A stretch of DNA of 64,000 nt. Source: OCS155 cluster bacterium AG-426-D23 (GTDB taxonomy: Bacteria > Actinomycetota > Acidimicrobiia > Actinomarinales > Actinomarinaceae). Below, piece by piece: positions 13,736 to 25,955 of this stretch; position 1 is the stretch's first letter, and each line of letters begins with the position of its first letter. A program made the position numbers and the translations under genes. The stretch is taken from assembly GCA_003213165.1 (NCBI GenBank), contig QCNO01000002.1, positions 74,868-138,867 on the forward strand, in the 5' to 3' direction. Under the pieces are notes generated by a model. It worked only from the letters and a program-made list of their open reading frames with translations, was not told the DNA's origin and made no database searches.

Positions 13736-14173
13736 TTATTTGCAATTAGAACACTGATCGGTACACGTACCAAACATTTCGACTCTGTGGTCATTTATAT
13801 GGAAATTAAACTTTCTTTCAATTTTTTTTATTTCTTCCGATAAAAGCTTTTCAAACTCATCGCTTAAACCAACATCAATAATCTCACCACAGTCACCACA
13901 AAATAAGTGATGATGATGTTCGGCATCATGCAGTAGTAGCTCAACAACTGTTGTGTTGTCTGGAGAGGTAAATTCGTGTAAAACATTTATTTTTTTAAGA
14001 TCTCCTAGGACTCGATACAGCGTAGACTTTGCTACTTTATTTTGTAACTTTTTTTGCAGGTCATCTATTGTTTGCGGATTCTGACTCTCCATGAGCGCTT
14101 CAAGAACAAGAATTCTTGGATTTGTGATTGAAACATTATGATCTGATAAAATTTTTCTTGAGCTCTCTGACAT
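13736..14173 (-). CDS. zur: Fur-family metalloregulator, probably Zur
   Basis: Winged helix (STLYRVLGDL), HHHHLFCGDCGEI and C-terminal CTDQCSNC metal sites; divergent from znuACB. Start moved to the ATG at 14173, since the upstream 16 codons cover the operator. Confidence 0.85.
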   Translation of the reverse strand: MSESSRKILSDHNVSITNPRILVLEALMESQNPQTIDDLQKKLQNKVAKSTLYRVLGDLKKINVLHEFTSPDNTTVVELLLHDAEHHHHLFCGDCGEIIDVGLSDEFEKLLSEEIKKIERKFNFHINDHRVEMFGTCTDQCSNCK

Positions 14174-14202
14174 ATTTTTATTATAGAATGCTGTATCAAA
14201 AA

Positions 14203-14223
14203 AAATGAGATAAATTCTCATTT
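14203..14223. promoter_or_regulatory. Zur/Fur-box-like 8-5-8 palindrome (box 1, zur side)
   Basis: AAATGAGA-TAAAT-TCTCATTT, perfect arms. Confidence 0.6.
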
Positions 14224-14227
14224 ATAC

Positions 14228-14256
14228 TTGACAATAAAATAAATGGGACTTATTCT
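14228..14256 (+). promoter_or_regulatory. znuA promoter candidate
   Basis: TTGACA (14228-14233) -17 nt- TATTCT (14251-14256); the -10 lies inside box 2. Confidence 0.55.
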
Positions 14257-14261
14257 CATTT
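14241..14261. promoter_or_regulatory. Zur/Fur-box-like palindrome (box 2, znuA side)
   Basis: AAATGGGA-CTTAT-TCTCATTT, one arm mismatch. Confidence 0.6.
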
Positions 14262-14288
14262 ATTGTTATAAATTAGAAGGAGAAACTT

Positions 14289-15314
14289 TTGAAAAATAAA
14301 TATAGTTTCAAATTTGGTGTGATCGCACTTTCTTTAGTATTGATAGCGTGTTCAGGCGGAAGTGCTGATGCAGGCTGTCCTGAAATAGATGGAAGAGAGA
14401 TTAATGTTGTAGCGACAACACCGATGATTGGAGAATTTGTTAGTAATGTAGGCGGAGATAATATAAACCTTACAGTTTTAATGCCGCCTGAAGCAGATCC
14501 CCATACGTACGAACCAGCTCCTCAGGATGCTGGAACAATTGCTGATGCAGATTTAGTTTTTTATACAGGGTTAATGTATGAACCAGCCCCGCTTGTAGAG
14601 TTACTTGAAAACTCAGTCTGCGGTTCTGAAGCTTTGGCTGAGGTTGGCGAAAGTGTTTTTCCCATAGAGTTTAAAGAAGGTGGTCATGATGACCATGACG
14701 ACCATGGAGAAAAAGGACATGATGACCATGACGAAGAAGGACATGATGACCATGACGAAGAAGGACATGAAGGCCACGGCCATGGTGCTTATGATCCTCA
14801 CTTTTGGTTTGATCCGAATAGAGTTGTCTATGCATCGGAATTTATAGAATCAAAATTAATTGAGCTTGACCCAAGTAATGCAGCTAGTTATCAAGCAGCT
14901 GGAGATGCTTATGCAACAGAGTTAAGCAGTTTAACAGGACAAGTTTCACAATTAATTGGGTCAATACCTTCTCAAAATAGAAAACTAATAACTACACACG
15001 AGTCGTTAGGTTACTTAGAGGCAAAATTTGGACTTGAAGTGCTTTCAACAATAATTCCTGATTTAGACTCTTCAAATGAAATAACACCAGCTCAGCTTGT
15101 TGATGTAATTGATGTAATTGAAGATAATAATGTAAAAGTAATCTTTATTGAGGCTGAAGCACCATCTGTTTACGCAGAAACAATTGTTGCGGAGACAGGA
15201 ATAAAAGCAGTTGAGGGCTTATGGGTAGAAACTTTGAAACTGGGTCAAACCTATCCAGAGTTTTTAATTGAAGCCGTTGAATTAATTGTGGAGAATCTTT
15301 CAAAAAGTGATTAA
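14289..15314 (+). CDS. znuA: zinc ABC transporter substrate-binding lipoprotein
   Basis: TTG start after AGGAG; lipobox LIAC; TroA/ZnuA fold motifs (DPHTYEP, DPHFWFDP); long His/Asp/Glu-rich loop typical of ZnuA. Confidence 0.9.
   Translation: MKNKYSFKFGVIALSLVLIACSGGSADAGCPEIDGREINVVATTPMIGEFVSNVGGDNINLTVLMPPEADPHTYEPAPQDAGTIADADLVFYTGLMYEPAPLVELLENSVCGSEALAEVGESVFPIEFKEGGHDDHDDHGEKGHDDHDEEGHDDHDEEGHEGHGHGAYDPHFWFDPNRVVYASEFIESKLIELDPSNAASYQAAGDAYATELSSLTGQVSQLIGSIPSQNRKLITTHESLGYLEAKFGLEVLSTIIPDLDSSNEITPAQLVDVIDVIEDNNVKVIFIEAEAPSVYAETIVAETGIKAVEGLWVETLKLGQTYPEFLIEAVELIVENLSKSD
14713..14770. repeat. 24-nt tandem repeat (2 perfect copies + partial) in the znuA His-rich loop
   Basis: aaggacatgatgaccatgacgaag at 14713-14736 and 14737-14760, then aaggacatga; encodes (E)GHDDHDEE units. 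Confidence 0.9.
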
Positions 15315-15359
15315 GTTGATTGTAGGTAACTTTCGTTAACCTACAAGAAAGATGTCACC

Positions 15360-16151
15360 ATGAAATCAACAGACGACAGAGTATTTGACAACACAGCAAT
15401 CATTGTATCTGATGGTTGCTGTGTTCAGATTGGAAACACCCAAGCACTAGATGATGTGACTTTTTCCATCACTAAAGGGAAAAAAGTTGCAGTGGTTGGA
15501 CCTAATGGCGGTGGCAAGTCTACTTTATTTAATGCCTTAGCTGGCTTAGCTCCGGTGGTTAATGGATCATTAAAAATTAACGGGCTCGACCCACAAGACG
15601 CAAAAGGTACAATTAGTTACGTTCCACAGAAAGATTTAATAAATCGAAACTTCCCTCTTTCTGTAAAACAAGTAGTAGAAATGGGTTTGATAACTCGGAA
15701 CTCTTTAAACCTCTTCGCAAGAAAGCAAATAAATTTAAAAATCGAAGAAGCCCTTGAAAATGTAGGTCTATCCGACAAAATAAACGAAAACATAAATAAT
15801 TTATCTGGTGGCCAGTTCCAAAGAGTCCTGATAGCAAGAGGGCTCGCTCAGGATGCAGATATTATATTATTGGATGAAGCTTTCAGTGCTGTCGATGTAG
15901 GAGCACAAGAAGACATCATGAGTTTGATAAGTGATATTAACTTAGATGGCAAAACGATATTAGTAGCGACTCATGATATAAATAATCTTGAAGAAAAATT
16001 TGATGAGGTTCTTTGTTTGAATAGACACTGTTGTGCCTACGGTGATCCATCAGAAGTTTTAACAGAAGATGTAATTAAAGAAATGTATGGCTCACATTAT
16101 GAGATGTTTAAGAATCATACTTCAGAGAGCCATGAAAAACATAATGATTGA
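15360..16151 (+). CDS. znuC: zinc ABC transporter ATPase
   Basis: Walker A GPNGGGKST, signature LSGGQFQRV, Walker B IILLDEAF. Confidence 0.9.
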   Translation: MKSTDDRVFDNTAIIVSDGCCVQIGNTQALDDVTFSITKGKKVAVVGPNGGGKSTLFNALAGLAPVVNGSLKINGLDPQDAKGTISYVPQKDLINRNFPLSVKQVVEMGLITRNSLNLFARKQINLKIEEALENVGLSDKINENINNLSGGQFQRVLIARGLAQDADIILLDEAFSAVDVGAQEDIMSLISDINLDGKTILVATHDINNLEEKFDEVLCLNRHCCAYGDPSEVLTEDVIKEMYGSHYEMFKNHTSESHEKHND

Positions 16152-16965
16152 GATAATAATTGAGCCTTTTAAATATGAATTTATGATGCGTTCTCTCATT
16201 ACTGCAACTGCATCGGGAATTATGTTGTCAATATTAGGACCCTTTGCAATTAACAGAAATATGGGTTTTATGGCAGACGCAATGGCTCATGCCACACTTC
16301 CAATTATTGCAGTGGGTGTATTTTTAGGTTTTAGTATTTCTGAATTAGGGGTTCCAGCATCTATATTGATTGCATTTTTCCTAGGTTATATAATTAAAAA
16401 TTCAAATGTGGGCGAGGATACTGCAATAGGTATTATTTTCTCATCGTTTTTTGCACTTGGGTTTATTCTGATTTCAATACTAAATGTAACAATTAACTTA
16501 GAGGATTTATTATTTGGGCAAATATTGGCAGTCAGCAGGTTCGATGTATTTATAGTTACAGCGATGTGTATTACAGTAGTAAGTCTTATAATAATTTTTT
16601 TCAAACAATTACTGTTTTATTCTTTTGATCCGATTGGTGCTGAAGTTAAGGGTCTAAATACCAACTTTCTAAATTATTTATTTCTTGTAATATTGTCGGT
16701 GGCAATTGTAGCCTCTCTTCAAACTGTTGGCATTATTTTAGTTTTAAGCATGCTTCTAATTCCAGCAGCCGCATCGAAGCAGATAACAAATACATTTGTT
16801 TCTTCTATATACGTAAGTATTCTCTTTGGTGTTTTTTCTTCAGTTTCAGGACTTTTTCTTTCTTACTTTTTTAATTTACCCTCAGGACCAACTATGTCTA
16901 TGGTTGCAACTTTCCTTTTTGTAGTCTGCTTTTTTGTAAATCAATTAAAAAAAACAAAAATTTAA
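16144..16965 (+). CDS. znuB: zinc ABC transporter permease
   Basis: ABC-3 type permease, 8-9 TM helices. Start set at the ATG at 16144 (ATGATTGA overlap with the znuC stop) rather than 16087. Confidence 0.88.
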   Translation: MIEIIIEPFKYEFMMRSLITATASGIMLSILGPFAINRNMGFMADAMAHATLPIIAVGVFLGFSISELGVPASILIAFFLGYIIKNSNVGEDTAIGIIFSSFFALGFILISILNVTINLEDLLFGQILAVSRFDVFIVTAMCITVVSLIIIFFKQLLFYSFDPIGAEVKGLNTNFLNYLFLVILSVAIVASLQTVGIILVLSMLLIPAAASKQITNTFVSSIYVSILFGVFSSVSGLFLSYFFNLPSGPTMSMVATFLFVVCFFVNQLKKTKI

Positions 16966-16972
16966 TTAAATA

Positions 16973-17440
16973 ATGTACTCGATTTGGCTTACAAGCTCAC
17001 AACATGACGAAGAAATTTACAGTTTAATTCAAAGATTTGCTGATGAAGAGGGTCAAGATGCTTTTATACCCCATGTAACACTGGTCACACAAATTTCTAC
17101 TAAAGAAAAAGTAGCTAAAATTCTAAATGAACTTTTTAAAAAAAAATGCAGTATTCTCTTTGATAAAATTTCAGTTGGTAATACCTACTTCCAGAAACTT
17201 TTCCTAGAGTCTTCTGATAACTCATATTTTTTTAAATCTATCTCAAATATTCAAGGTTGGCCAAGTCTATGGATACCTCATTTATCGTTGTACTACGGGG
17301 ATGAGCTACCCAAATCTTTTGACCTGGGGGAGCTCAATAAACTCATCCCTGTAGCACTCACTTTTGACACTATTGCTGTTTACAAAACAGGACCTGAAGT
17401 GTCAGAGTGGAAGGAGATAACCACTCTTTATTTGGATTGA
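16973..17440 (+). CDS. 2H phosphoesterase superfamily protein (LigT / cyclic phosphodiesterase-like)
   Basis: Two H-x-(T/S)-x motifs: IPHVTLVT and IPHLSLYY. Confidence 0.7.
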   Translation: MYSIWLTSSQHDEEIYSLIQRFADEEGQDAFIPHVTLVTQISTKEKVAKILNELFKKKCSILFDKISVGNTYFQKLFLESSDNSYFFKSISNIQGWPSLWIPHLSLYYGDELPKSFDLGELNKLIPVALTFDTIAVYKTGPEVSEWKEITTLYLD

Positions 17441-17469
17441 TTCCAAAACAACAAATATTTTTGTGATAC

Positions 17470-19704
17470 CTAAACAATTGCAAAACTTTCATTTGAAAAA
17501 TCTATTGATAAGCTTTGTGATGTAGATATCGTTGAAAAATTACTTTCACCAACACCAAGAATTGCTGGAATATTGTGCTCAGCACACCTTATCGCCATGT
17601 GAGAGTTTGGTCCCCCATACTTTGTAATCAAGGATTTGATTTTGTAATTAAAAATCCAATCCCATCCGGGGTCTGCTGCTGGAATAACTACAATTTTATT
17701 ATCGAGGTCATAAGGCTGATTTGAATAATTATCTAGAAGTAAAACTTTCCCAGAAACTGTTCCTTGTCCAATGTAATTTCCGTCTTTGCTCATTTCCTCA
17801 TATAAATAAAAATCATCGGACGACGAGATTAAGTCAGGCATTAATGTGTTTTTAAGATCTAAATTAATTGTATTTTCTTGGCTAAATTCAATATTTAGTC
17901 GTTGAAAAAGTTCTTCGTCGCTTATATTTTGCTCCTCTATTTCATTTAAAATACCGTCAATTCCTTTTGTGTAGTAAAATTTTGAATTCTCTCTTGTTGC
18001 AATAGCGGTCTGAAACATTTCAACCCAAGCTGATGCCGTGTATGGAATATTGTTTAATTCAAAATATTTATCAATATTTGAAAATATAACTTTTTGCAAT
18101 AAAATATTTTCATCTTGCGGTTCACTATTATGAACCAACAGCTCTGTAAACTCTAAATTATTTTTTAGATTAGATGAAGATAGATTATAGTTACCAGCCC
18201 TTATGTGTCCATAAATGTCTAAAAAGCTACTGAGACTTTTCTGTCCAAGTTTGACCTGATAGGCATCCGACTTCATTTTCGTACTTATTGAATTTACTGA
18301 CAACAGTATTGAGTTCTTTTGTGCTTCGGTAATTACATCTTTTCTCAAAAGATTGTTTAATTGAGCAAAATACACAAATCCCAGCCTTGAATGATGAGTA
18401 AAAGGTAACGCCATATTGTCTCTAATAAATTTTATATTTTCTTTTTTAGAGTATTTAAAATTCCCATCAAGCAAAGAGAATGCCCTTAACATAGTTTCAT
18501 TATTTTTTTCTAGGGTTGATTTGTTTAAGCTATCGATTTTAATTAAATCCTGATGCCATTTCTGAATCTCTTCTGGGCTAATAATGTTTTTATATTCAAT
18601 AGCAAATTCATCTTCAGTATCAAACACATATGATGACCTAGAGATATTAAATTCAATTGAATCATGTAAATGTGGGTTCTCTTTTAATTTTTCTAATTGA
18701 TGCTGTATTATTTTTTCACAGCTATCGGCTTGTAAGCTTCGAGTTAAAAAACTATTTAAACTATGGTTTACATTTATGTAGGCTACATTATTGAAAAGTT
18801 CCATTAATTTAGCTGGTTTATATTTTCTATAACCAAATTCACCACGTTGTATATTCCATGTTGAGTCTGTAAACATAAATTTGTATAAACCAAATGCAAC
18901 ATTGTCGGGTTTTTTTCCAATCATTTCGGCTGGATTCATGTCTGACATATTGCTAAAAAGCTGATTGATACCAAAACGATCGTTTGTAGTTTTTTTTAAA
19001 GAGTCATACTTTTTGACATTCTGCTCAATTATTTTTTTCTCTGTAAATATCAAATTCTTATTAACTTTTTTCTCCATCAGAGGCCGAACTTGTAAAAGCA
19101 GGGGTGAAGAATTATTATCCAGAACCATTTCAATGTCTAAATGCTTGTTACCAAATAAATCTTCTAGTTTTGTTAGAATTTTTAGATATACAGAATATTC
19201 ATTATATTTATTTGGCAACTTGTTTATTGATCTATGAACATAGAAATTTTTAATCTGATTGTACTTTCCAGATGTAACTGCATCAGTTTCTGGCCCATTA
19301 TAAATTGAAAATGAACGATAAAGAGAGTCTGTCCCAACCTTAAAAGATGTAAGCACAGATACGCTCTTTGCGTTTTTTACATAATCTTGCAAAATTACGG
19401 TTTGATTGGCATCTTTTTCATAGCTATTCAAGACCTGATTCCATGATTTTTTTATATCTTCTATTCTTTCCTTGCTAATTGGTCCGATGGAAAGATATTT
19501 ACCTGCATTAGAGGAGCTCTCCAAGTCTTCATTAGAACTATTGCTTCTTATCATTATTTCTTCTGAAAAATCATTAAGAATCTCGTTAATATTTCCTAAA
19601 TCTTTCAAAGAAAGCTCTCTAAAGTATGGAATTTTTATATCCGTATGGTTTGCTACGAACTCTAGGTTTTTAGCTTTGTTACCATAATTTATTCGATCAT
19701 CCAT
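17470..19704 (-). CDS. PEP-utilising-enzyme family phosphotransferase (ATP-grasp N-domain + unknown central domain + C-terminal swivel His domain)
   Basis: PPDK_N-like YGNKAKNLEFV, IMIRSNSSNEDLESSSNAGKY, VILQDYV; C-terminal mobile domain ITKYGGPNSHMAIRCAEHNIPAILGV; 7-nt gap after trpB2. Confidence 0.85.
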   Translation of the reverse strand: MDDRINYGNKAKNLEFVANHTDIKIPYFRELSLKDLGNINEILNDFSEEIMIRSNSSNEDLESSSNAGKYLSIGPISKERIEDIKKSWNQVLNSYEKDANQTVILQDYVKNAKSVSVLTSFKVGTDSLYRSFSIYNGPETDAVTSGKYNQIKNFYVHRSINKLPNKYNEYSVYLKILTKLEDLFGNKHLDIEMVLDNNSSPLLLQVRPLMEKKVNKNLIFTEKKIIEQNVKKYDSLKKTTNDRFGINQLFSNMSDMNPAEMIGKKPDNVAFGLYKFMFTDSTWNIQRGEFGYRKYKPAKLMELFNNVAYINVNHSLNSFLTRSLQADSCEKIIQHQLEKLKENPHLHDSIEFNISRSSYVFDTEDEFAIEYKNIISPEEIQKWHQDLIKIDSLNKSTLEKNNETMLRAFSLLDGNFKYSKKENIKFIRDNMALPFTHHSRLGFVYFAQLNNLLRKDVITEAQKNSILLSVNSISTKMKSDAYQVKLGQKSLSSFLDIYGHIRAGNYNLSSSNLKNNLEFTELLVHNSEPQDENILLQKVIFSNIDKYFELNNIPYTASAWVEMFQTAIATRENSKFYYTKGIDGILNEIEEQNISDEELFQRLNIEFSQENTINLDLKNTLMPDLISSSDDFYLYEEMSKDGNYIGQGTVSGKVLLLDNYSNQPYDLDNKIVVIPAADPGWDWIFNYKIKSLITKYGGPNSHMAIRCAEHNIPAILGVGESNFSTISTSQSLSIDFSNESFAIV

Positions 19705-19711
19705 TTTTTAC

Positions 19712-21067
19712 CTATTTTTTGACTGACTCCAAAGCTACTTGAACTTTTTCAGACGGAAATTCGTAATCAACCATCTCTCCACTCAAAAAGTTTTCATAAG
19801 CTTTCATATCAAAGTGACCATGTCCACACATTGCTGTCAAAACGGCAATACTTTCAGAATTTTGGTCAGCATCTTTCACTGCCCTAATTGCTGATGCAAT
19901 TGCATGAGTTGCTTCTGGAGCAGGTACTATGCCCTCTGTCTTAGCAAATAGTTGACCAGCTTCAAAGCATTCTTTTTGACCAATCGCTTCTGCTTCTATT
20001 GCTTTGTCTTCATAAAGTGCACTCACAAGAGGAGCCATTCCATGGTATCTCAACCCACCGGCATGAATCGGATCAGGGACAAAACTTGAACCAAGAGTGT
20101 GCATTTTGACAACAGGTGCCATTCCTACTGAATCCCCAAAGTCATATGTGTAAACACCTTTAGTTAATGAAGGGCATGCCTCTGGTTCAACCGCACGAAT
20201 AATAGTTTTTTGCTCTGTTTTCATATTGTTCCTAGCAAACGGTGAAAATAGCCCAGTAAAGTTTGAACCACCACCAGTACAACCAACAATTATATCTGGG
20301 TAGTCATCAGCCATCTCCATTTGTTTCAGTGCTTCAAGACCAATTATTGATTGGTGCATGAGAACATGATTGAGGACGCTTCCTAATGCGTATCTTGTTC
20401 CTTCTTCCTTCCTTGCAACCTCAATTGCTTCAGAGATTGCTATTCCAAGGCTTCCTGGAGTATTTGGGTCTTCTGACAAAAATTGTTTACCGATATCAGT
20501 CCTCTCAGACGGGCTTGGATGGACAGTAGCACCATATATCTCCATCATTGTTTTTCTGTAAGGCTTTGACTCAAAAGACGCAGCTACTTGAAAAACTTCA
20601 AGCTCAATTCCAAAGGCTTGACATGCAAATGACAAAGCTGAACCCCACTGACCAGCACCCGTTTCTGTAACCATTTTTTTTATTCCTTCTTCTGCGTTGT
20701 AATATGCTTGAGGAATTGCGGTATTTGGCTTGTGAGAACCTGATGGTGACCCACCTTCGTATTTATAATATATTCTTGACTTTGTTCCCAAAGCCTTTTC
20801 AAGCCTTAAAGCCCTATACATCGGTGAAGGCCTGTATAGCTTATACAAATCTAAAACAGGTTCAGGAATATCTATATAGCTTTGGTCAGACACTTCCTGC
20901 AGAATCAACCCCATTGGGAATAACGGTGCTAAATCCTCTGGACCGATTGGATCCATAGTCTGTGGATTCAACTGCGGAGGTAAAGGATTCGGTAAATCAG
21001 GCACAATGTTGTACCACTGTTTTGGAATATCATTTTCATCTAATAAATATTTGTACTGTTCTTTCAT
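19712..21067 (-). CDS. trpB: TrpB2-type tryptophan synthase beta-like PLP enzyme
   Basis: 451 aa (long TrpB2 form); PLP lysine motif GGSPSGSHKPNTA; GCTGGGSNFTG glycine loop; RBS AAAGGAG. Confidence 0.92.
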   Translation of the reverse strand: MKEQYKYLLDENDIPKQWYNIVPDLPNPLPPQLNPQTMDPIGPEDLAPLFPMGLILQEVSDQSYIDIPEPVLDLYKLYRPSPMYRALRLEKALGTKSRIYYKYEGGSPSGSHKPNTAIPQAYYNAEEGIKKMVTETGAGQWGSALSFACQAFGIELEVFQVAASFESKPYRKTMMEIYGATVHPSPSERTDIGKQFLSEDPNTPGSLGIAISEAIEVARKEEGTRYALGSVLNHVLMHQSIIGLEALKQMEMADDYPDIIVGCTGGGSNFTGLFSPFARNNMKTEQKTIIRAVEPEACPSLTKGVYTYDFGDSVGMAPVVKMHTLGSSFVPDPIHAGGLRYHGMAPLVSALYEDKAIEAEAIGQKECFEAGQLFAKTEGIVPAPEATHAIASAIRAVKDADQNSESIAVLTAMCGHGHFDMKAYENFLSGEMVDYEFPSEKVQVALESVKK

Positions 21068-21120
21068 TTTTACTCCTTTGTTTGGGTTGAGCCCGGAGTT
21101 TTAATTTCAGTGACAGTAAC

Positions 21121-21145
21121 AAAAAAACCGGGCTGTGCCCGGTTT
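21121..21145 (-). terminator. intrinsic terminator acting as attenuator in the trpB2 leader
   Basis: Minus strand AAACCGGGC-ACA-GCCCGGTTT followed by a T7 run, 53 nt upstream of the trpB2 ATG. Confidence 0.75.
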
Positions 21146-21170
21146 AAGAACTAACTAGTGGGGCACCTAC

Positions 21171-21212
21171 CTATGTAGTTGACCACCAATTCCAGCTAGT
21201 TACATTTTTCAT
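21171..21212 (-). CDS. trpL: Trp-rich leader peptide (13 aa)
   Basis: ATG AAA AAT GTA ACT AGC TGG AAT TGG TGG TCA ACT ACA TAG = MKNVTSWNWWSTT*; 3 Trp codons. Confidence 0.7.
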   Translation of the reverse strand: MKNVTSWNWWSTT

Positions 21213-21219
21213 TACCTAT

Positions 21220-21247
21220 AAGGTACCAAATAATACTTAAGATGCAA
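21220..21247 (-). promoter_or_regulatory. promoter candidate for the leaderless trp leader transcript
   Basis: Minus strand TTGCAT -16 nt- TACCTT -7 nt- ATG(21212). Confidence 0.45.
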
Positions 21248-21290
21248 AATTTATTTAAGTAAAATTTTTAATTCTCCTATTCTTTATTAA

Positions 21291-22019
21291 ATGGAAAACA
21301 TAATACAAGCTACAAAGCTGACCAAAATTTATGGAGAAAAAGAAACTAGCGTTACAGCACTCGATAATGTCGATGTCCAATTTAATGAAAATGAATTTAC
21401 AGCAATAATGGGACCTTCTGGTTCTGGTAAGTCAACATTGCTTCATTGTTTAGCAGGTTTAGATAGACCAACATCAGGACAAATATTCCTGAAAGATCAA
21501 GATATATCAACTTTAAATGACAAACAATTAACAAAAATCAGGAGAGATAGTTTTGGATTTGTTTTTCAAGCTTTTAATTTAATACCAACACTAACTGCCG
21601 AAGAGAATATAACCTTGCCAGCATCTATTTCAGGTAAAAAACCAGATATGGACTGGATTAAACAAGTTGTAGAAACAGTTGATATCGGTGACAGATTAAC
21701 CCATAGGCCCAATGAGTTATCTGGTGGTCAACAGCAGAGGGTTGCTGCTGCCAGAGCAATGGCAACAAAGCCAGAGGTTATTTTTGCTGATGAGCCTTCA
21801 GGAAACTTAGACTCCAAATCAAGCAAAGAGCTCTTAACTTTCATGAAGTCTGTTGTGGAGGAATTAAACCAAACAATAATAATGGTGACACACGATCCAT
21901 ATGCTGCGTCTTATGCAAGCAGAGTAATTATGCTAAAAGATGGAAGCATTGCAAGCGATTTAAAAGAACCAACTCAAGAAGAAATTGTTGCAGAGGTTAC
22001 AGCACTAACTAATATCTGA
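21291..22019 (+). CDS. ABC transporter ATPase (MacB/LolD-like)
   Basis: GPSGSGKST, LSGGQQQRVAAARA, VIFADEPSGNLD. Confidence 0.92.
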   Translation: MENIIQATKLTKIYGEKETSVTALDNVDVQFNENEFTAIMGPSGSGKSTLLHCLAGLDRPTSGQIFLKDQDISTLNDKQLTKIRRDSFGFVFQAFNLIPTLTAEENITLPASISGKKPDMDWIKQVVETVDIGDRLTHRPNELSGGQQQRVAAARAMATKPEVIFADEPSGNLDSKSSKELLTFMKSVVEELNQTIIMVTHDPYAASYASRVIMLKDGSIASDLKEPTQEEIVAEVTALTNI

Positions 22020-24634
22020 TGTTTGGTTTTACAAAACGCCCTCTTTTTTTAATTGCATGGAAAAACTTAAAAACCTATCCAGTTAGAATTTTTCTCACTA
22101 CGTCTTCCATTATTCTTGGTGTCGCAGTAATCATTGCTTCAAACATATTTTCAGAGAGTAATAAATCTGCGTTCGACAACTTATTTTCAGGAATTTATGA
22201 AGGAGTTGACTTAGTAGTGCAGCCGATTCAGGAAGATTTTGCACAGGGTTTTAGTGGAGATGGAGGACAAGGCCCTATTTCTTTCGAGGTAAAAAAAATA
22301 CCCGATAATAGAATTCAGGAAATAGTAAACCTGCCTAGTGTAAGAGCTGCATGGGGTGAAGTTTTAGGATTTGCACAATTCATAAAAATTGTAGACGGTG
22401 AAACAGTATTAATTTCAAATGGATTTGCTCCTACATTTGGTGCCGCATGGGACAGTAATCCATATGCACAACAGTGGTCACTTGTAGAAGGACAACCACC
22501 AACAAACAAAAAAGAAGTTGTCATGGATGTTGTAACTGCTGAAAACCATAATTTCTCAGTGGGAGACAGGGTGACTGTTCTTGCCGGTGCGACTCCTGCA
22601 TCATTTACAATCGTTGGAATCGCAGAGTTTGCCAATGTTGGTGCACCAGGTGGCGCAACTTTCGCTTTATTTGAATTTAGAACTGCACAGGCACTTCTTG
22701 ATTCAAAAGGAGAAGTAGATCTTATCAATGTAGTTATAGAAAATAATTTTGATATTAACGATGTAAAAAATGATATAACAAATCTAGATTCAGAAAATTT
22801 AAATGTAATTAACGCTCAAGAAGCTGCGGCTGAACAAGCTGATTCAATTAAACAGGGGCTAGATTTTTTTAACACAATACTTAATGTCTTTGCAGGGATT
22901 GCAATTTTTGTTGGTGCTTTTATTATTCAAAATACCTTCAGAATACTTTTACTTCAAAGAACAAAAGAACTGTCTTTGCTTAGAGCGCTCGGCACATCTA
23001 AAAGACAGATCTATAGGTTGGTCATATCTGAATCATTGTTTATGTCAATAATAGGATCAGGGCTTGGTATAGCTTTAGGTATTGGACTAGCAGTAGCAGT
23101 TAAAGAGGGGTTACAGTATTTTGAATTTGGTCTTCCTGACGGCCCTTTGGTTCTGACTACAGAAGCTGCAATCACAGGATTAATTATTGGTATTACAGTT
23201 ACAATCTTTTCTTCTCTGCTCCCTGCTAGAAAAGCTTCACAAGTAAGCCCAATGGAAGCAATCAGAGACAGTGTTTCAACCCCACAAAGAAAGTCTTTAC
23301 TTGCAAGACTTCTGTTTGGCTCGATAATTTCTATTGTTGGATTTGGAGTACTGTTTGGAGTTTTGTATGACTTCTTAGATCTCCCAACCTTATCATCCTT
23401 GCAACAAGTTGGATTTGGTGCAGGTGTTATATTTATTGGAATCTCAGTTGTAACCCCGTCTATAACGAAGCCTTTTGTTTTTATATTTGATAAAATTTAC
23501 AACTTATTATTTGGAATCTTAGGCAAATTAGCAACTGAAAACTCTAAAAGAACTCCAAGAAGAACTGCATCTACAGCTTCGGCTTTAATGATTGGCCTTA
23601 CATTGATTTCTTTAGCAAACGTTATTACAACCTCGTTTAAGGCACAGGCAGAGTCCTTAATTAGCGAAGTTATTCTTGCAGACTATCAGGTGAGTGCGGC
23701 AAATGTTTTTGCTTCTCCAGGTATTCCAACAGGTTTGTCAGAGGAACTTTTACAGCTCGATGAAGTAACCAAGCTCTCAAGAACAAGAGCGACAGTTGTT
23801 GGATTTAACGACAGACCACTGATATTGGGTGCTGTTGATGAGACTGTTTTTGATCTTGTAAAAACTGATGATGTATCTGGAGATAGAAAAGACTTTCTTG
23901 ATGAGAATGCCATAGGAATATTAAAACAAACAGCAGAAAGGGAAGAGCTTTTTGTTGGAGACGAAGTTGTTTTAACAATTCCTGAAGAAGGAGAAAGAAC
24001 ATTTACCGTGTCTTACATATTTGACTGGACTACACAACCTCCAGCAGAGTTCTTTGTCTTACTTGAAAATAACTCTTTCTTTTCGGATGAGTCTTTAGAC
24101 ACAGAACTATATTTCAATGTTGATAAAAAAACACCAGAGTTAGAAGAGAAAATTAATGCAATTGTTGATGAATATCCAGGAGTAGAAATAAGAGATGAAG
24201 ACGGTCTGGTTGAAGAGGCTAACAACCAAATCCAGTTACTTTTGAATGTAATATACGGATTCCTATCGATATCTATTTTTGTAGCACTATTTGGAATAAC
24301 TAACACACTATCTCTTTCTGTTTTTGAAAGAACAAGAGAAATAGGTCTTATGAGAGCTATTGGCACTTATAGAAAACAAATAAGAAGAATGATCTTTATT
24401 GAATCATCGATAATTTCAATATTTGGAGCAGCATTAGGAACTAGTCTAGGTATATTTTTTGCCTGGAGTCTCATACAAACTCTTGCTGACGAAGGATTCA
24501 CAGTATTTGCAGTGTCTATCCCTCAAACAGCATTATGGATTGGAATTTCGATTATTGCCGGAGTGATAGCTGCAATACTTCCTGCAATTCGAGCATCAAG
24601 ACAAAATATTCTTGAAGCCATCTCTTATGAGTAA
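22019..24634 (+). CDS. FtsX-family ABC permease with two FtsX modules
   Basis: 871 aa, two MacB_PCD/FtsX halves (LRALGTSKRQI and MRAIGTYRKQI); ATGA-type overlap with the ATPase. Confidence 0.9.
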   Translation: MFGFTKRPLFLIAWKNLKTYPVRIFLTTSSIILGVAVIIASNIFSESNKSAFDNLFSGIYEGVDLVVQPIQEDFAQGFSGDGGQGPISFEVKKIPDNRIQEIVNLPSVRAAWGEVLGFAQFIKIVDGETVLISNGFAPTFGAAWDSNPYAQQWSLVEGQPPTNKKEVVMDVVTAENHNFSVGDRVTVLAGATPASFTIVGIAEFANVGAPGGATFALFEFRTAQALLDSKGEVDLINVVIENNFDINDVKNDITNLDSENLNVINAQEAAAEQADSIKQGLDFFNTILNVFAGIAIFVGAFIIQNTFRILLLQRTKELSLLRALGTSKRQIYRLVISESLFMSIIGSGLGIALGIGLAVAVKEGLQYFEFGLPDGPLVLTTEAAITGLIIGITVTIFSSLLPARKASQVSPMEAIRDSVSTPQRKSLLARLLFGSIISIVGFGVLFGVLYDFLDLPTLSSLQQVGFGAGVIFIGISVVTPSITKPFVFIFDKIYNLLFGILGKLATENSKRTPRRTASTASALMIGLTLISLANVITTSFKAQAESLISEVILADYQVSAANVFASPGIPTGLSEELLQLDEVTKLSRTRATVVGFNDRPLILGAVDETVFDLVKTDDVSGDRKDFLDENAIGILKQTAEREELFVGDEVVLTIPEEGERTFTVSYIFDWTTQPPAEFFVLLENNSFFSDESLDTELYFNVDKKTPELEEKINAIVDEYPGVEIRDEDGLVEEANNQIQLLLNVIYGFLSISIFVALFGITNTLSLSVFERTREIGLMRAIGTYRKQIRRMIFIESSIISIFGAALGTSLGIFFAWSLIQTLADEGFTVFAVSIPQTALWIGISIIAGVIAAILPAIRASRQNILEAISYE

Positions 24635-24659
24635 AACATACAGGACTTAATATTACAAT

Positions 24660-25955
24660 ATGGCTCAACAAGAGATAATCAATTTGCTTTCTGAGATGGT
24701 AAAAATTCCATCCATAAGTTCTGATAAAGATCATAGAGATGATGTGGATGCTTCGGCCCAATTCGTAGAGAACTTATTTGCAGACCTTGGTCTTAATACA
24801 CAAGTTATCAAAGTACCAGGAGGAATGCCTGCTGTAGTTGCTCACACTGAGATTGATCCAGATAAAAAGACTGTACTTTTATATGCTCACCATGATGTTC
24901 AGCCTGTCGGAGATATAAGTTTATGGAACACTGACCCTTTTCAGCCAGAACTGATTGATGGAAGACTATTTGGTAGAGGATCTGGAGATAATAAATCTGG
25001 AGTAGTGGTACATTACAACGTCATAAAACAATTAATTGATGAACTACCTGTAAACATAAAAGTGTTTATTGAAGGTGAAGAAGAAATTGGGTCTCCAACA
25101 ATGGCTTTATTCATAGAGCAAAACAGAGAGGCACTTGAGGCAGATGTAATAATTATTGCCGATTCTGGAAATGTAAAAATTGGAGTACCAACTATTACAA
25201 CAACCCTTAGAGGTTTAGTTGATGGAATTATTGAAGTTGATCAACCAATGAGGCCAATTCATTCAGGTGTTGGAGGAGGTGTTGTACCAGATGCTTTTAT
25301 GGTACTCAGTAGAATCATTTCCTCGTTTCATGATGACAAAGGAAATCTTATGATAGAGGGTTTAACTTCTACAGATATGAAAGTTACCGAACTTGAGGAG
25401 TCCTTTCTTAAAAAAATGCTTGGCTCAGATGATATTGCCCTTTTTGACACTGAAAGTATTTCAAAGAGACTCTGGTTAGAGCCAGCGTTAGATGTGCTTG
25501 CAATCGACGCCCCGCCAGTAAAAGAAGCTGTTAACTTAGTTATTCCAACAGCTAGGGCAAAAGTTAGTTTAAGACTTCCGCCAACAGAAGACCCAGATCA
25601 TGCAATGAAGATGCTCGAGGAGCACATAATGAAAAATATTCCTTGGGATGCATCAGTTAAGTTTATTCCTAACTCTAAAGGCTCCGGAGTTGTGGCAGAT
25701 CCAAACAAACCCTTCACTACAGAATTAGTAAATAGTTTTAACTCTACTTGGGAAAATGAAACTGCATATATAGGAGTAGGTGGATCAATTCCTTTTGCTA
25801 ATGATTTTGTCAGAGAGTTTCCAAATGCAGAGCTTGTCTTAATTGGGGCTGCAGATGAAGAACTTGGAAATGCTCATGCTCCAAATGAGAGCGTACAAAT
25901 CGACCATATTGAGATGCTTATCGAAAGTCTTGTTAAGACTTTGAAGAATATTTAG
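24660..25955 (+). CDS. M20-family dipeptidase
   Basis: YAHHDVQP, GRGSGDNKSG, IEGEEEIGS metal/catalytic motifs. Confidence 0.85.
   Translation: MAQQEIINLLSEMVKIPSISSDKDHRDDVDASAQFVENLFADLGLNTQVIKVPGGMPAVVAHTEIDPDKKTVLLYAHHDVQPVGDISLWNTDPFQPELIDGRLFGRGSGDNKSGVVVHYNVIKQLIDELPVNIKVFIEGEEEIGSPTMALFIEQNREALEADVIIIADSGNVKIGVPTITTTLRGLVDGIIEVDQPMRPIHSGVGGGVVPDAFMVLSRIISSFHDDKGNLMIEGLTSTDMKVTELEESFLKKMLGSDDIALFDTESISKRLWLEPALDVLAIDAPPVKEAVNLVIPTARAKVSLRLPPTEDPDHAMKMLEEHIMKNIPWDASVKFIPNSKGSGVVADPNKPFTTELVNSFNSTWENETAYIGVGGSIPFANDFVREFPNAELVLIGAADEELGNAHAPNESVQIDHIEMLIESLVKTLKNI

Follow-up and report, generated by a model that had tools for sequence, protein, structure and literature searches.

The locus described here is probably a tryptophan-starvation-inducible accessory cassette: an attenuated TrpB2 salvage gene joined by a facultative, strongly diverged kinase with an altered acceptor. 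We put the probability of this reading at roughly 60%. The locus belongs to the Ca. Actinomarina genome AG-426-D23 and lies in a stretch of 64,000 nucleotides (contig QCNO01000002.1, positions 74,868 to 138,867), here called the window; all positions below are those of the window.

All features are on the minus strand, in the order leader, antiterminator/terminator pair, trpB2, kinase. The leader peptide ORF (MKNVTSWNWWSTT*, 21212-21171) has 13 codons, three of them for Trp: W7, W9 and W10 (21194-21192, 21188-21186 and 21185-21183). Just past the leader stop lies the 5' segment of the antiterminator, GUGCCC (21166-21161), with its partner GGGCAC at 21140-21135. The antiterminator is short, with 6 bp only. 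An intrinsic terminator, CCGGGC-ACA-GCCCGG-U7, is found at 21142-21121 by terminator scan and folding, and next to it is a conserved element, GTTACTGTCACTGAAATTAAAACTCCGGGCTCAACCCAAA (21081-21120), directly after which the cargo genes start. trpB2 (19712-21067, 451 aa; Shine-Dalgarno AAGGAG at 21078-21073) is separated from the kinase-family ORF (17470-19704, 744 aa) by exactly 7 nt (TAG gtaaaaa ATG). This gap had been reported by an earlier, sequence-only reading of the locus, and it was recovered together with the other sequence features described there. A candidate promoter, TTGCAT-16-TACCTT (21220-21247), is read from the sequence and is not among the results of the consensus scan. With its -10 ending 7 nt ahead of the leader's ATG, the promoter may produce a leader mRNA that is leaderless. 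Metatranscriptome RNA contigs cross the trpB2/kinase junction (X4, 19575-19739; X6, 19405-19840) and their depth is higher in the leader bin than in the trpB2 body; these are assembled contigs, in which DNA carry-over and pooling of several strains are possible.

That the operon is controlled by Trp attenuation, as the sequence-only reading had proposed, is supported by conservation. Among 15 distinct leaders of the genus the pattern W-x-W-W is invariant while the remaining codons vary, and in the AG-426-D23 genome such a leader occurs as a single copy. The terminator stem is invariant in all 15 leaders. For the antiterminator, 96.7% of the cells over the 15 leaders are paired, against at most 49% in slid registers, and 12 of 500 shuffles reach an equal score. 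One pair shows a compensatory change, from G-C to C-G, in the kinase-only clade. GGGCAC overlaps the 5' arm and loop of the terminator, and the two structures are mutually exclusive. When the leader region was compared with Rfam, no family matched at E up to 10.

From this arrangement we infer Trp-dependent read-through. When Trp-tRNA is scarce, the ribosome would stall at the Trp codons of the leader and leave GUGCCC free; its pairing with GGGCAC would then block the terminator, and the cargo genes would be transcribed. When Trp is plentiful, a ribosome at the stop codon would cover GUGCCC and the terminator would form. The greater RNA-contig depth over the leader than over trpB2 is indirect evidence for this.

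The first cargo gene is a clear TrpB2. It scores 701 bits against NF009057 (cut-off 366) and 609 bits against TIGR01415 (cut-off 519), and among PDB structures it matches 6HUL_B with 424 bits and 4QYS_B with 383 bits. The catalytic, PLP-binding Lys motif GSHKxNTA aligns, with GSHKPNTA in TrpB2 and GSHKINTA in 6HUL_B. The earlier remark that no other trp genes are nearby turns out to be an understatement: in tblastn searches of the whole 86%-complete assembly, the E. coli TrpA, TrpC, TrpD and TrpE queries gave no match, and TrpB2 was the sole match to E. coli TrpB. Further, a TrpB1-type match is found in none of the 64 genus genomes, while relatives in the class do have one. Ca. Actinomarina has been reported to be uniformly and irreversibly tryptophan-auxotrophic (PMC7771536; bioRxiv 10.64898/2026.04.03.716425). 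As the de novo pathway is absent from both the genome and the genus, the data support TrpB2 as a stand-alone, Trp-attenuated gene for putative indole salvage. The enzyme would convert scavenged indole, together with L-serine or O-phospho-L-serine, to L-Trp; dependence on O-phospho-L-serine has been reported for TrpB2 enzymes (Busch et al. 2014, as cited in PMC11917138).

The second cargo gene codes for a protein of three domains: an ATP-grasp domain (residues ~1-215, 19704-19060), a helical domain predicted to bind the acceptor (residues ~216-625, 19059-17830) and a swivel phosphohistidine domain (residues ~626-744, 17829-17473). The motif GGPNSHMAIRC is confirmed, with the catalytic His702 at 17601-17599. 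In Pfam the PEP-utilizers swivel domain matches residues 669-736 (2e-13), and the PPDK_N match is sub-threshold. A PEP synthase or pyruvate phosphate dikinase was rejected: Pfam finds no PEP/pyruvate TIM-barrel domain, the protein stops after the swivel, and PEP-synthase models give at most 31 bits against cut-offs of at least 598. The structure prediction that the sequence-only reading had suggested gave an AlphaFold2 model (pLDDT 92, pTM 0.90) with a three-domain fold like that of rifampin phosphotransferase (RPH), and the six best PDB matches of the model are all RPH, full length (E 1e-19 to 5e-14). Since the match is full length, the domain order of a small-molecule phosphotransferase, which had been proposed in place of a PEP synthase, is real. 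Rifampin phosphotransferase itself was rejected as an identification, because NF041857 gives 20.5 bits against a cut-off of 999 and in the C-terminal domain only; the resemblance is at the fold level. The ATP-grasp and C-terminal swivel domains had thus been read correctly, but the central domain is not unrecognisable, as had been stated: one family model, NF004508 / PRK05849, spans the whole protein.

On this model the kinase scores 496.2 bits, 5 below the curated cut-off of 501. The kinases of other Actinomarina clades score 483-489 bits; for reference, the nearest outgroup reaches 575 bits and a protein that JGI names 'glutamine kinase' reaches 931. At the 95 family columns that are conserved to at least 90%, the kinase keeps 76 residues, while 144 family representatives keep a mean of 92 and a minimum of 80; it is the most diverged of all at conserved positions. 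The columns that are 100% invariant are all kept except one (G116S), and the strictly invariant polar residues of the middle domain (E260, D348, E351, R440, R502, R571, E572, K575) are retained. The family-conserved W256, D311, K349 and P503 are replaced, and the Actinomarina-specific replacements are located in the MPDWNPAE, HDK and GHLRPGTY motifs. Judged by these alignments, the kinase branched from the L-glutamine kinase (Cj1418) family and has diverged strongly.

In Campylobacter jejuni, O-methyl phosphoramidate biosynthesis starts with Cj1418, an L-glutamine kinase (EC 2.7.3.13). Family loci in other phyla carry a Cj1417-like GATase (gamma-glutamyl-CDP-amidate hydrolase) nearby in 59 of 74 cases and a Cj1416-like cytidylyltransferase (phosphoglutamine cytidylyltransferase) in 65 of 74, and the nearest outgroups (41% and 37% identity) adjoin GATase/Peptidase_C26 and NTP_transf_3 genes. 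By tblastn, none of the Cj1415/1416/1417-type partner genes is found in the AG-426-D23 genome. Nonetheless the kinase is under purifying selection: its dN/dS is 0.18 within the kinase-only clade and ranges from 0.09 to 0.18 in the rest. The four replaced residues, the loss of the partners and the continued selection together favour an altered acceptor, probably no longer glutamine.

By homology, the ATP-grasp domain would move the phosphoryl group of ATP onto His702, and the swivel domain would hand it to a small acceptor bound in the helical middle domain; the product may help under Trp limitation. The retained invariant polar residues mean that the acceptor could still be glutamine. In that case the kinase would make N5-phospho-L-glutamine for a use outside the Campylobacter-type phosphoramidate pathway, as its score close to the family cut-off and the 76 of 95 conserved columns would allow. 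We consider this unlikely, as the Cj1417-like and Cj1416-like genes of most other loci are gone, the protein has diverged more than any other member at conserved positions, with the three motifs altered, phosphoglutamine has no known fate here and its control by Trp would have no rationale.

How the two cargo genes are distributed was counted in the 64 species genomes of Ca. Actinomarina. They are linked in 12 species, and six more have both genes unlinked; eight species have trpB2 without the kinase, and in three the kinase stands alone behind the leader, with no trpB2 and with an identical deletion junction in all three. Overall 18 genomes have both genes, 5 only the kinase, 8 only trpB2 and 33 neither, which corresponds to an odds ratio of 14.9 (Fisher p 1e-5, not phylogeny-corrected). 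In the six unlinked cases the genes are ~50 kb apart or on separate contigs, and the kinase has no Trp leader. A kinase at another site, behind a DoxX/DUF417-like gene and without leader, is present in seven species, and six of these seven genomes also carry trpB2. The operon is kept in two kinase clades that are just 72% identical. As either gene is found alone in related species, the phyletic pattern indicates that the kinase is a facultative add-on and not an obligate partner of TrpB2. The odds ratio and the persistence of the operon in two clades would fit a tighter functional coupling than this.

These counts also bear on the function first proposed for the kinase, namely that it supplies TrpB2 with O-phosphoserine by phosphorylating L-serine (or a related hydroxy-amino acid), so that the two form a coupled module for indole salvage. 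Such a module would agree with the reported phosphoserine dependence of TrpB2 enzymes, the 7-nt gap and the RNA contigs across it, the linkage in 12 species and two deeply diverged clades, the co-occurrence that extends to the unlinked kinase type, and the presence of O-phosphorylating enzymes, such as rifampin phosphotransferase, in the superfamily. However, the genes are separable: eight species keep trpB2 without the kinase, three have kept the kinase under selection since a single deletion removed trpB2, and the unlinked clade does without the Trp leader. Further, SerC is present in AG-426-D23 (353 bits, cut-off 253) and in 51 of the 64 genomes, among them every one of the 12 with a completeness of 90% or more, so O-phosphoserine is already made as an intermediate regardless of the kinase. 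The ancestry of the kinase lies among amide-N kinases, and its outgroups sit in phosphoramidate clusters. The gene-neighbourhood comparison suggested along with the proposal gave a divided answer, as the pairing recurs within the genus but none of the 74 family loci outside it is near a trpB. The serine proposal is weakened by this, not refuted, and we now regard it as improbable.

At least eight species have an intact leader that no cargo gene follows (G013, G004, G023, G012, G019, G010, G020 and, on a second contig, G002). These cargo-less leaders are 72-84% identical although synonymous divergence in the neighbouring abcATP gene has reached saturation (dS 1.3-2.9). The position of the leader upstream of the kinase is therefore no proof of a Trp-related role. 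The element GTTACTGTCACTGAAATTAAAACTCCGGGCTCAACCCAAA is present in trpB2-plus-kinase, trpB2-only, kinase-only and cargo-less alleles and absent in MYKVTNWNWW-type alleles, and one RNA contig joins 21083 directly to 17425, the empty-slot form. In one genome (G018) the slot is a recombination junction, with one flank 96-97% identical and the other 70-77%. The kinase might be a passenger unrelated to Trp that inserted at a site prone to recombination, downstream of a leader already in place, and whose Trp control is incidental; the leaderless copies at the DoxX/DUF417-like site would also suit this. We doubt it, since the kinase co-occurs significantly with trpB2 even when unlinked, and the tight operon has long been retained although gene order in Ca. 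Actinomarina is otherwise fluid (bioRxiv 10.64898/2026.04.03.716425).

The RPH-like fold and the patchy, accessory distribution could also suggest an enzyme that inactivates a Trp antimetabolite or an inhibitor of tryptophanyl-tRNA synthetase, with the leader sensing a drop in charged tRNA-Trp. A parallel is trpRS1 of Streptomyces coelicolor, which is indolmycin-resistant and attenuator-controlled. The family ancestry is, however, biosynthetic and not one of resistance, and the unlinked copies have no leader; we consider such a role very unlikely.

A more far-reaching picture can be proposed tentatively, at less than even odds: a descendant of a glutamine kinase has acquired a new acceptor that is relevant to Trp limitation, and the W-x-W-W leader is an autonomous Trp sensor, which selection maintains even where no gene follows and which would thus have a second function independent of cargo. 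Candidates for the acceptor are serine, whose phosphorylation would supply TrpB2 with O-phosphoserine, and compounds related to indole or Trp. The leader could act on the convergent zinc-uptake operon, with read-through transcripts as antisense regulators, or it could be a regulatory RNA. If the picture is true, the most abundant marine actinobacterium gains a conditional, two-enzyme way out of Trp auxotrophy.

Ca. Actinomarina are tiny and among the most abundant bacteria of the surface ocean. About 40% of their species would have a regulated escape from auxotrophy, in which TrpB2 turns indole into Trp upon shortage of Trp-tRNA. The locus therefore bears on marine cross-feeding of indole, a widespread microbial exometabolite. 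As a capsule-modification kinase that has lost its pathway and is kept by purifying selection in a 1-Mb genome, the kinase offers a natural experiment in enzyme recruitment. Conserved attenuators without cargo may indicate a new use of leader-peptide switches.

In comparison with attenuators of the E. coli trpL type, the Actinomarina leader shares the short ORF, the clustered Trp codons, the alternative hairpins and the U-run. It differs in its very small size (13-14 codons, with an antiterminator of 6 bp), in governing the salvage gene of an auxotroph and in being conserved even without a downstream gene. Like known TrpB2 proteins (TIGR01415 / NF009057; PDB 4QYS, 6HUL), the one studied here is full-length and high-scoring with the catalytic-Lys motif, and a role in indole salvage agrees with published TrpB2 biology. 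In contrast to these, it is the sole trp-pathway gene of its genome, has its own leader-peptide attenuator and is accessory in the genus (26 of 64 species).

The kinase has the three-domain order of the Cj1418 family and the same GGxNSHMAIR catalytic-His motif. Compared with its nearest relatives it lacks ~24 loop residues and the N-terminal nucleotidyltransferase-like extension, and unlike Cj1418, whose gene belongs to a capsule cluster, it is encoded downstream of a Trp attenuator and trpB2. With RPH (PDB 5HV1, 5FBS) it shares the order of ATP-grasp domain, helical substrate domain and C-terminal swivel His, while the sequences are only 14-15% identical and the overall TM-score is only ~0.4.

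In the best-supported reading, the core of the cassette is the leader together with trpB2. The gene pair of the sequence-only reading, with its 7-nt gap, is recovered by ORF listing and translation: trpB2 (451 aa, 19712-21067, minus strand) is followed, through TAG-gtaaaaa-ATG, by the gene of a 744-aa phosphotransferase-like protein, here called the kinase (17470-19704, minus strand). A strong Shine-Dalgarno sequence, AAGGAG, stands ahead of trpB2 on the same strand. Further upstream, also on the minus strand, sequence reading gives a leader ORF, MKNVTSWNWWSTT plus stop codon (21212-21171), and, with the fold, the 5' antiterminator segment GUGCCC (21166-21161); a terminator scan and the fold give a hairpin, CCGGGC-ACA-GCCCGG followed by U7 (21142-21121). 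After the terminator comes a 40-nt element, GTTACTGTCACTGAAATTAAAACTCCGGGCTCAACCCAAA (21081-21120, minus strand), and the cargo, meaning the gene or genes behind a leader, starts directly 3' of it. This element is kept in cargo-bearing and cargo-less alleles, is absent from alleles of the MYKVTNWNWW type, and holds a second CCGGGC copy and a small hairpin. The cassette is flanked on one side by genes for a Zur-like regulator, znuACB and a CPDase-like 2H-phosphoesterase (13736-17440), and on the other by a MacB-type ABC exporter (ATPase and 871-aa FtsX permease) and an M20 peptidase (21291-25955). Leader and exporter operon are divergent in nearly all species.

Leaders were gathered from more than 20 species, and 15 distinct sequences were compared. 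Little or no variation is seen in the W-x-W-W motif (three TGG codons), the GUGCC segment, the terminator stem and the U-run; the terminator helix shows none at all, and the remaining codons of the leader differ freely, as in MKNVTSWNWWSTT, MYKVTNWNWWTLHM, MINVINWHWWTTT and MLKTNNWNWWNLLT. For the 6-bp antiterminator GUGCCC:GGGCAC, 96.7% of cells are paired, against at most 49% in registers slid by 1-3 nt, and this score is equalled by 12 of 500 column shuffles. The pairing survives wobble changes at four positions, and a clade that carries the kinase only has one compensatory swap of G-C to C-G (CUGCCC:GGGCAG). The leader stop codon lies 5 nt upstream of GUGCCC. A ribosome stalled at W7-W10 would leave GUGCCC free, while one at the stop codon would cover it, so that the predicted geometry fits the classical attenuation model. 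Judging from this conservation, the attenuator is real and conserved, and the proposal of a Trp-attenuated operon is supported. In Rfam (E up to 10, 16000-23000) only chance matches to snoRNAs and miRNAs were obtained and no Trp-leader family, and a whole-genome scan found no further unit of W-rich leader and terminator.

A candidate -10 element, TACCTT, ends 7 nt ahead of the leader ATG, and translation of the leader may therefore start on a leaderless mRNA. Contigs from assembled marine metatranscriptomes cover trpB2 and the kinase and span their junction (X4 19575-19739; X6 19405-19840). In three runs the leader bin is 2-3 times or more as deep as the trpB2 body, although depth is measured poorly by contigs and several strains are pooled in the leader. 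These contigs are consistent with co-transcription and frequent termination.

The leader also occurs on its own. At least eight species have an intact leader in the slot, the genomic site of the cassette, with no gene behind it: peptide, antiterminator, terminator and usually the 40-nt element are present (loci L061 6275-6410, L063 6080-6246, L064 5776-5915, L065 6109-6248, L066 1192-1329, L067 5829-5960, L062 6040-6175 and L070 3398-3537). The orphan leader abuts the 3' end of a convergent gene in the genomes G013, G004, G023, G012, G019 and G010 and on a second G002 contig; in G020 its context is different. The empty-slot joint, 17425 to 21083, is also seen in one RNA contig. Comparison of cargo-less species shows saturation at synonymous sites of the flanking exporter ATPase gene (dS 1.3-2.9), yet their leaders are 72-84% identical and retain all functional features, which argues that conservation of the leader does not depend on its cargo. 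The orphan leaders would thus serve a function apart from any cargo, perhaps by antisense read-through into the zinc-uptake genes that converge on them. Their conservation also weakens the argument that a kinase left behind the leader after loss of trpB2 needs a tryptophan-related job.

The upstream gene is, by its profile scores, an unambiguous TrpB2 (NF009057, 701 bits against a cut-off of 366; TIGR01415, 609 bits). It aligns with the solved TrpB2 structures 6HUL_B (424 bits) and 4QYS_B (383 bits), including the lysine motif GSHKxNTA. The absence of other trp genes, first noted for the neighbourhood, holds genome-wide: in the assembly that contains the window (G000; 0.96 Mb, 33% G+C, 86% complete), tblastn with E. 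coli TrpA/B/C/D/E found no trpA, trpC, trpE or TrpD transferase domain, and the TrpB query matched only TrpB2. Among 64 species-level Actinomarina genomes the TrpB2 profile, which can see TrpB1 (E 1e-33 to 1e-54 in other Acidimicrobiia), found no TrpB1. Two studies independently report that tryptophan, arginine and histidine synthesis are missing in Actinomarina (PMC7771536; bioRxiv 10.64898/2026.04.03.716425); TrpB2 goes unmentioned in both, and a literature search found no paper pairing 'Actinomarina' with 'tryptophan synthase'. Since genome and genus lack the de novo genes, TrpB2 would be a stand-alone last-step enzyme that only makes sense as indole salvage, as had been suggested. In class relatives, other Acidimicrobiia, TrpB2 lies about 1 kb or less from TrpB1 (G034:C2:23238-26507; G029:C29:4892-8055), probably inside a trp operon. 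The Actinomarina trpB2 may thus be the last remnant of an ancestral operon and not a new acquisition.

Across the same 64 genomes the pairing of trpB2 and kinase is frequent but not obligatory. Leader, trpB2 and kinase stand together in 12 species, in two kinase clades with a mutual identity of only 72%. In six species leader and trpB2 occupy the slot, with the kinase on a different contig or at a distance of about 50 kb; eight have trpB2 without kinase, three have leader and kinase with trpB2 nowhere, one has an unlinked kinase alone, one a kinase pseudogene alone, and 33 have neither. From these counts (18/5/8/33) the odds ratio is 14.9 (Fisher p 1e-5), a value that overstates the evidence as the species are non-independent. 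The pairing recurs only inside the genus: within 8 kb of 74 loci of the kinase family from many phyla, TrpB or TrpB2 was found in 0. In the six species with trpB2 and an unlinked kinase, a gene for a DoxX/DUF417-like membrane protein (145 aa) precedes the kinase, with 2 nt between its stop codon and the kinase start. This arrangement is seen in a third Actinomarina clade, where the kinase has 757 aa and 67% identity and trpB2 is about 50 kb distant (L015 4829-7542, also L016, L018 and L157). The pair is flanked by hydrolase genes and an O-acetylhomoserine-sulfhydrylase-like gene, and no Trp leader was found upstream of it.

In the three kinase-only species the trpB2 5'UTR is fused to the kinase start at an identical junction, which points to loss of trpB2 by a single deletion. 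Binning error is excluded, as two of the three are genomes of single cells, and the kinase has stayed intact since the deletion over a dS of about 0.23. Further, species whose flanking ftsX genes share only 76-77% identity have TrpB2 proteins that are 92% identical, which suggests that the cassette has been exchanged between members of the genus. In G018 (locus L028, with L026 and L027 alongside) the slot is a recombination junction: abcATP/ftsX on one side are 96-97% identical to the window, and CPDase/znu on the other only 54-77%.

The kinase had been proposed to phosphorylate serine and so supply TrpB2 with phosphoserine. A preprint states that serC is absent from Actinomarina (bioRxiv 10.64898/2026.04.03.716425), which, if right, would have favoured a serine kinase. 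This is contradicted by a 355-aa SerC in G000, outside the window (C4:74608-75675; NF003764, 353 bits against a cut-off of 253), and by SerC, the phosphoserine transaminase, in 51 of 64 genus genomes, including 12 of 12 at 90% completeness or more; in two high-quality genomes, G042 and G077, the copies look truncated or contain stops. The support from a phosphoserine shortage thus fell away: with SerC near-universal, O-phosphoserine is a normal intermediate and TrpB2 needs no dedicated serine kinase. As the two genes are also separable, and never neighbours in the outside loci, we consider serine phosphorylation an improbable one among several options and not the best-supported reading.

The domain order of a phosphotransferase, in contrast, stands. 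An AlphaFold2 model of the kinase built from 127 sequences (pLDDT 92, pTM 0.90) has rifampin phosphotransferase as all six of its top PDB matches, at full length (E 1e-19 to 5e-14), and the model confirms an architecture of ATP-grasp, helical acceptor domain and swivel-His domain. A PDB sequence search matched the swivel domain alone; the whole is visible only by fold search. In Pfam the PEP-utilizers swivel phosphohistidine domain covers residues 669-736 (2e-13), with the catalytic His702 in GGPNSHMAIRC (17601-17599, minus strand), PPDK_N is a sub-threshold match, and there is no PEP/pyruvate domain, which rules out a PEP synthase or PPDK. The central domain is not unrecognisable, as was first thought: NCBIfam NF004508 (PRK05849), the L-glutamine kinase family, matches the protein over its whole length and scores 496 bits, where the curated cut-off is 501. 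A representative named 'glutamine kinase' by JGI scores 931 bits. The family has 2430 representatives at 50% clustering. Many of them reach about 1000 aa and carry an N-terminal extension; in alignments the beginning of this extension resembles the glycine-rich start of nucleotidyltransferases, and Pfam has no domain there.

Divergence was measured on those 95 columns of the alignment in which 144 representatives of the family show at least 90% conservation. Of these columns, 75-76 are retained in the three Actinomarina clades, below every representative (mean 92, sd 2.4, minimum 80), and 82-83 in a sister clade. All strictly invariant residues except G116, here Ser, are retained: E59, D60, E192, Q205 and R207 in the ATP-grasp domain, E260, D348, E351, R440, R502, R571, E572 and K575 in the middle domain, and H702 in the swivel domain; the catalytic machinery therefore looks intact. 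Substitutions common to all Actinomarina clades and not found in the sister clade hit those motifs of the middle domain that are conserved best: MPDW to MSDM (W256M), D311N, HDK to HDS (K349S) and GHLRPGTY to GHIRAGNY (P503A). The loss of one acidic and one basic conserved side chain would, as a conjecture, fit an altered acceptor. Values of dN/dS (0.12-0.13 at dS 0.35 for a trpB2-linked clade, 0.18 at dS 0.23 for the kinase-only clade, 0.09-0.18 for the unlinked clade) indicate purifying selection in all contexts. A decayed copy with 20 in-frame stops occurs in a species without trpB2 (L022, G010:C5:884338-886409).

Taken together, the gene pair, the conserved attenuator, the predicted salvage role for TrpB2 and the predicted phosphotransferase architecture are confirmed. 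We believe that the counts across the genus, the survey of 74 loci, the finding of SerC, the measurements of conserved columns and dN/dS, the structural match and the persistence of orphan leaders over long times are added here. The two closest homologues from outside Actinomarina (41% and 37% identity) adjoin genes for GATase/Peptidase_C26, NTP_transf_3 and a glycosyltransferase, which by gene content is the Cj1418-Cj1417-Cj1416 arrangement. In Campylobacter this set converts glutamine, ATP and CTP to CDP-phosphoramidate 3'-phosphate (PMC11800397; PMC6429109). The partners are usual in the family: within 8 kb, a Cj1417-like gene occurs at 59 of the 74 loci and a Cj1416-like gene at 65. By tblastn the G000 genome has no homologue of either, which rules out the canonical phosphoramidate pathway. 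Next to these systems, the best-supported reading is that the Actinomarina kinase is a facultative and, by its residues, diverged descendant of the glutamine kinases.
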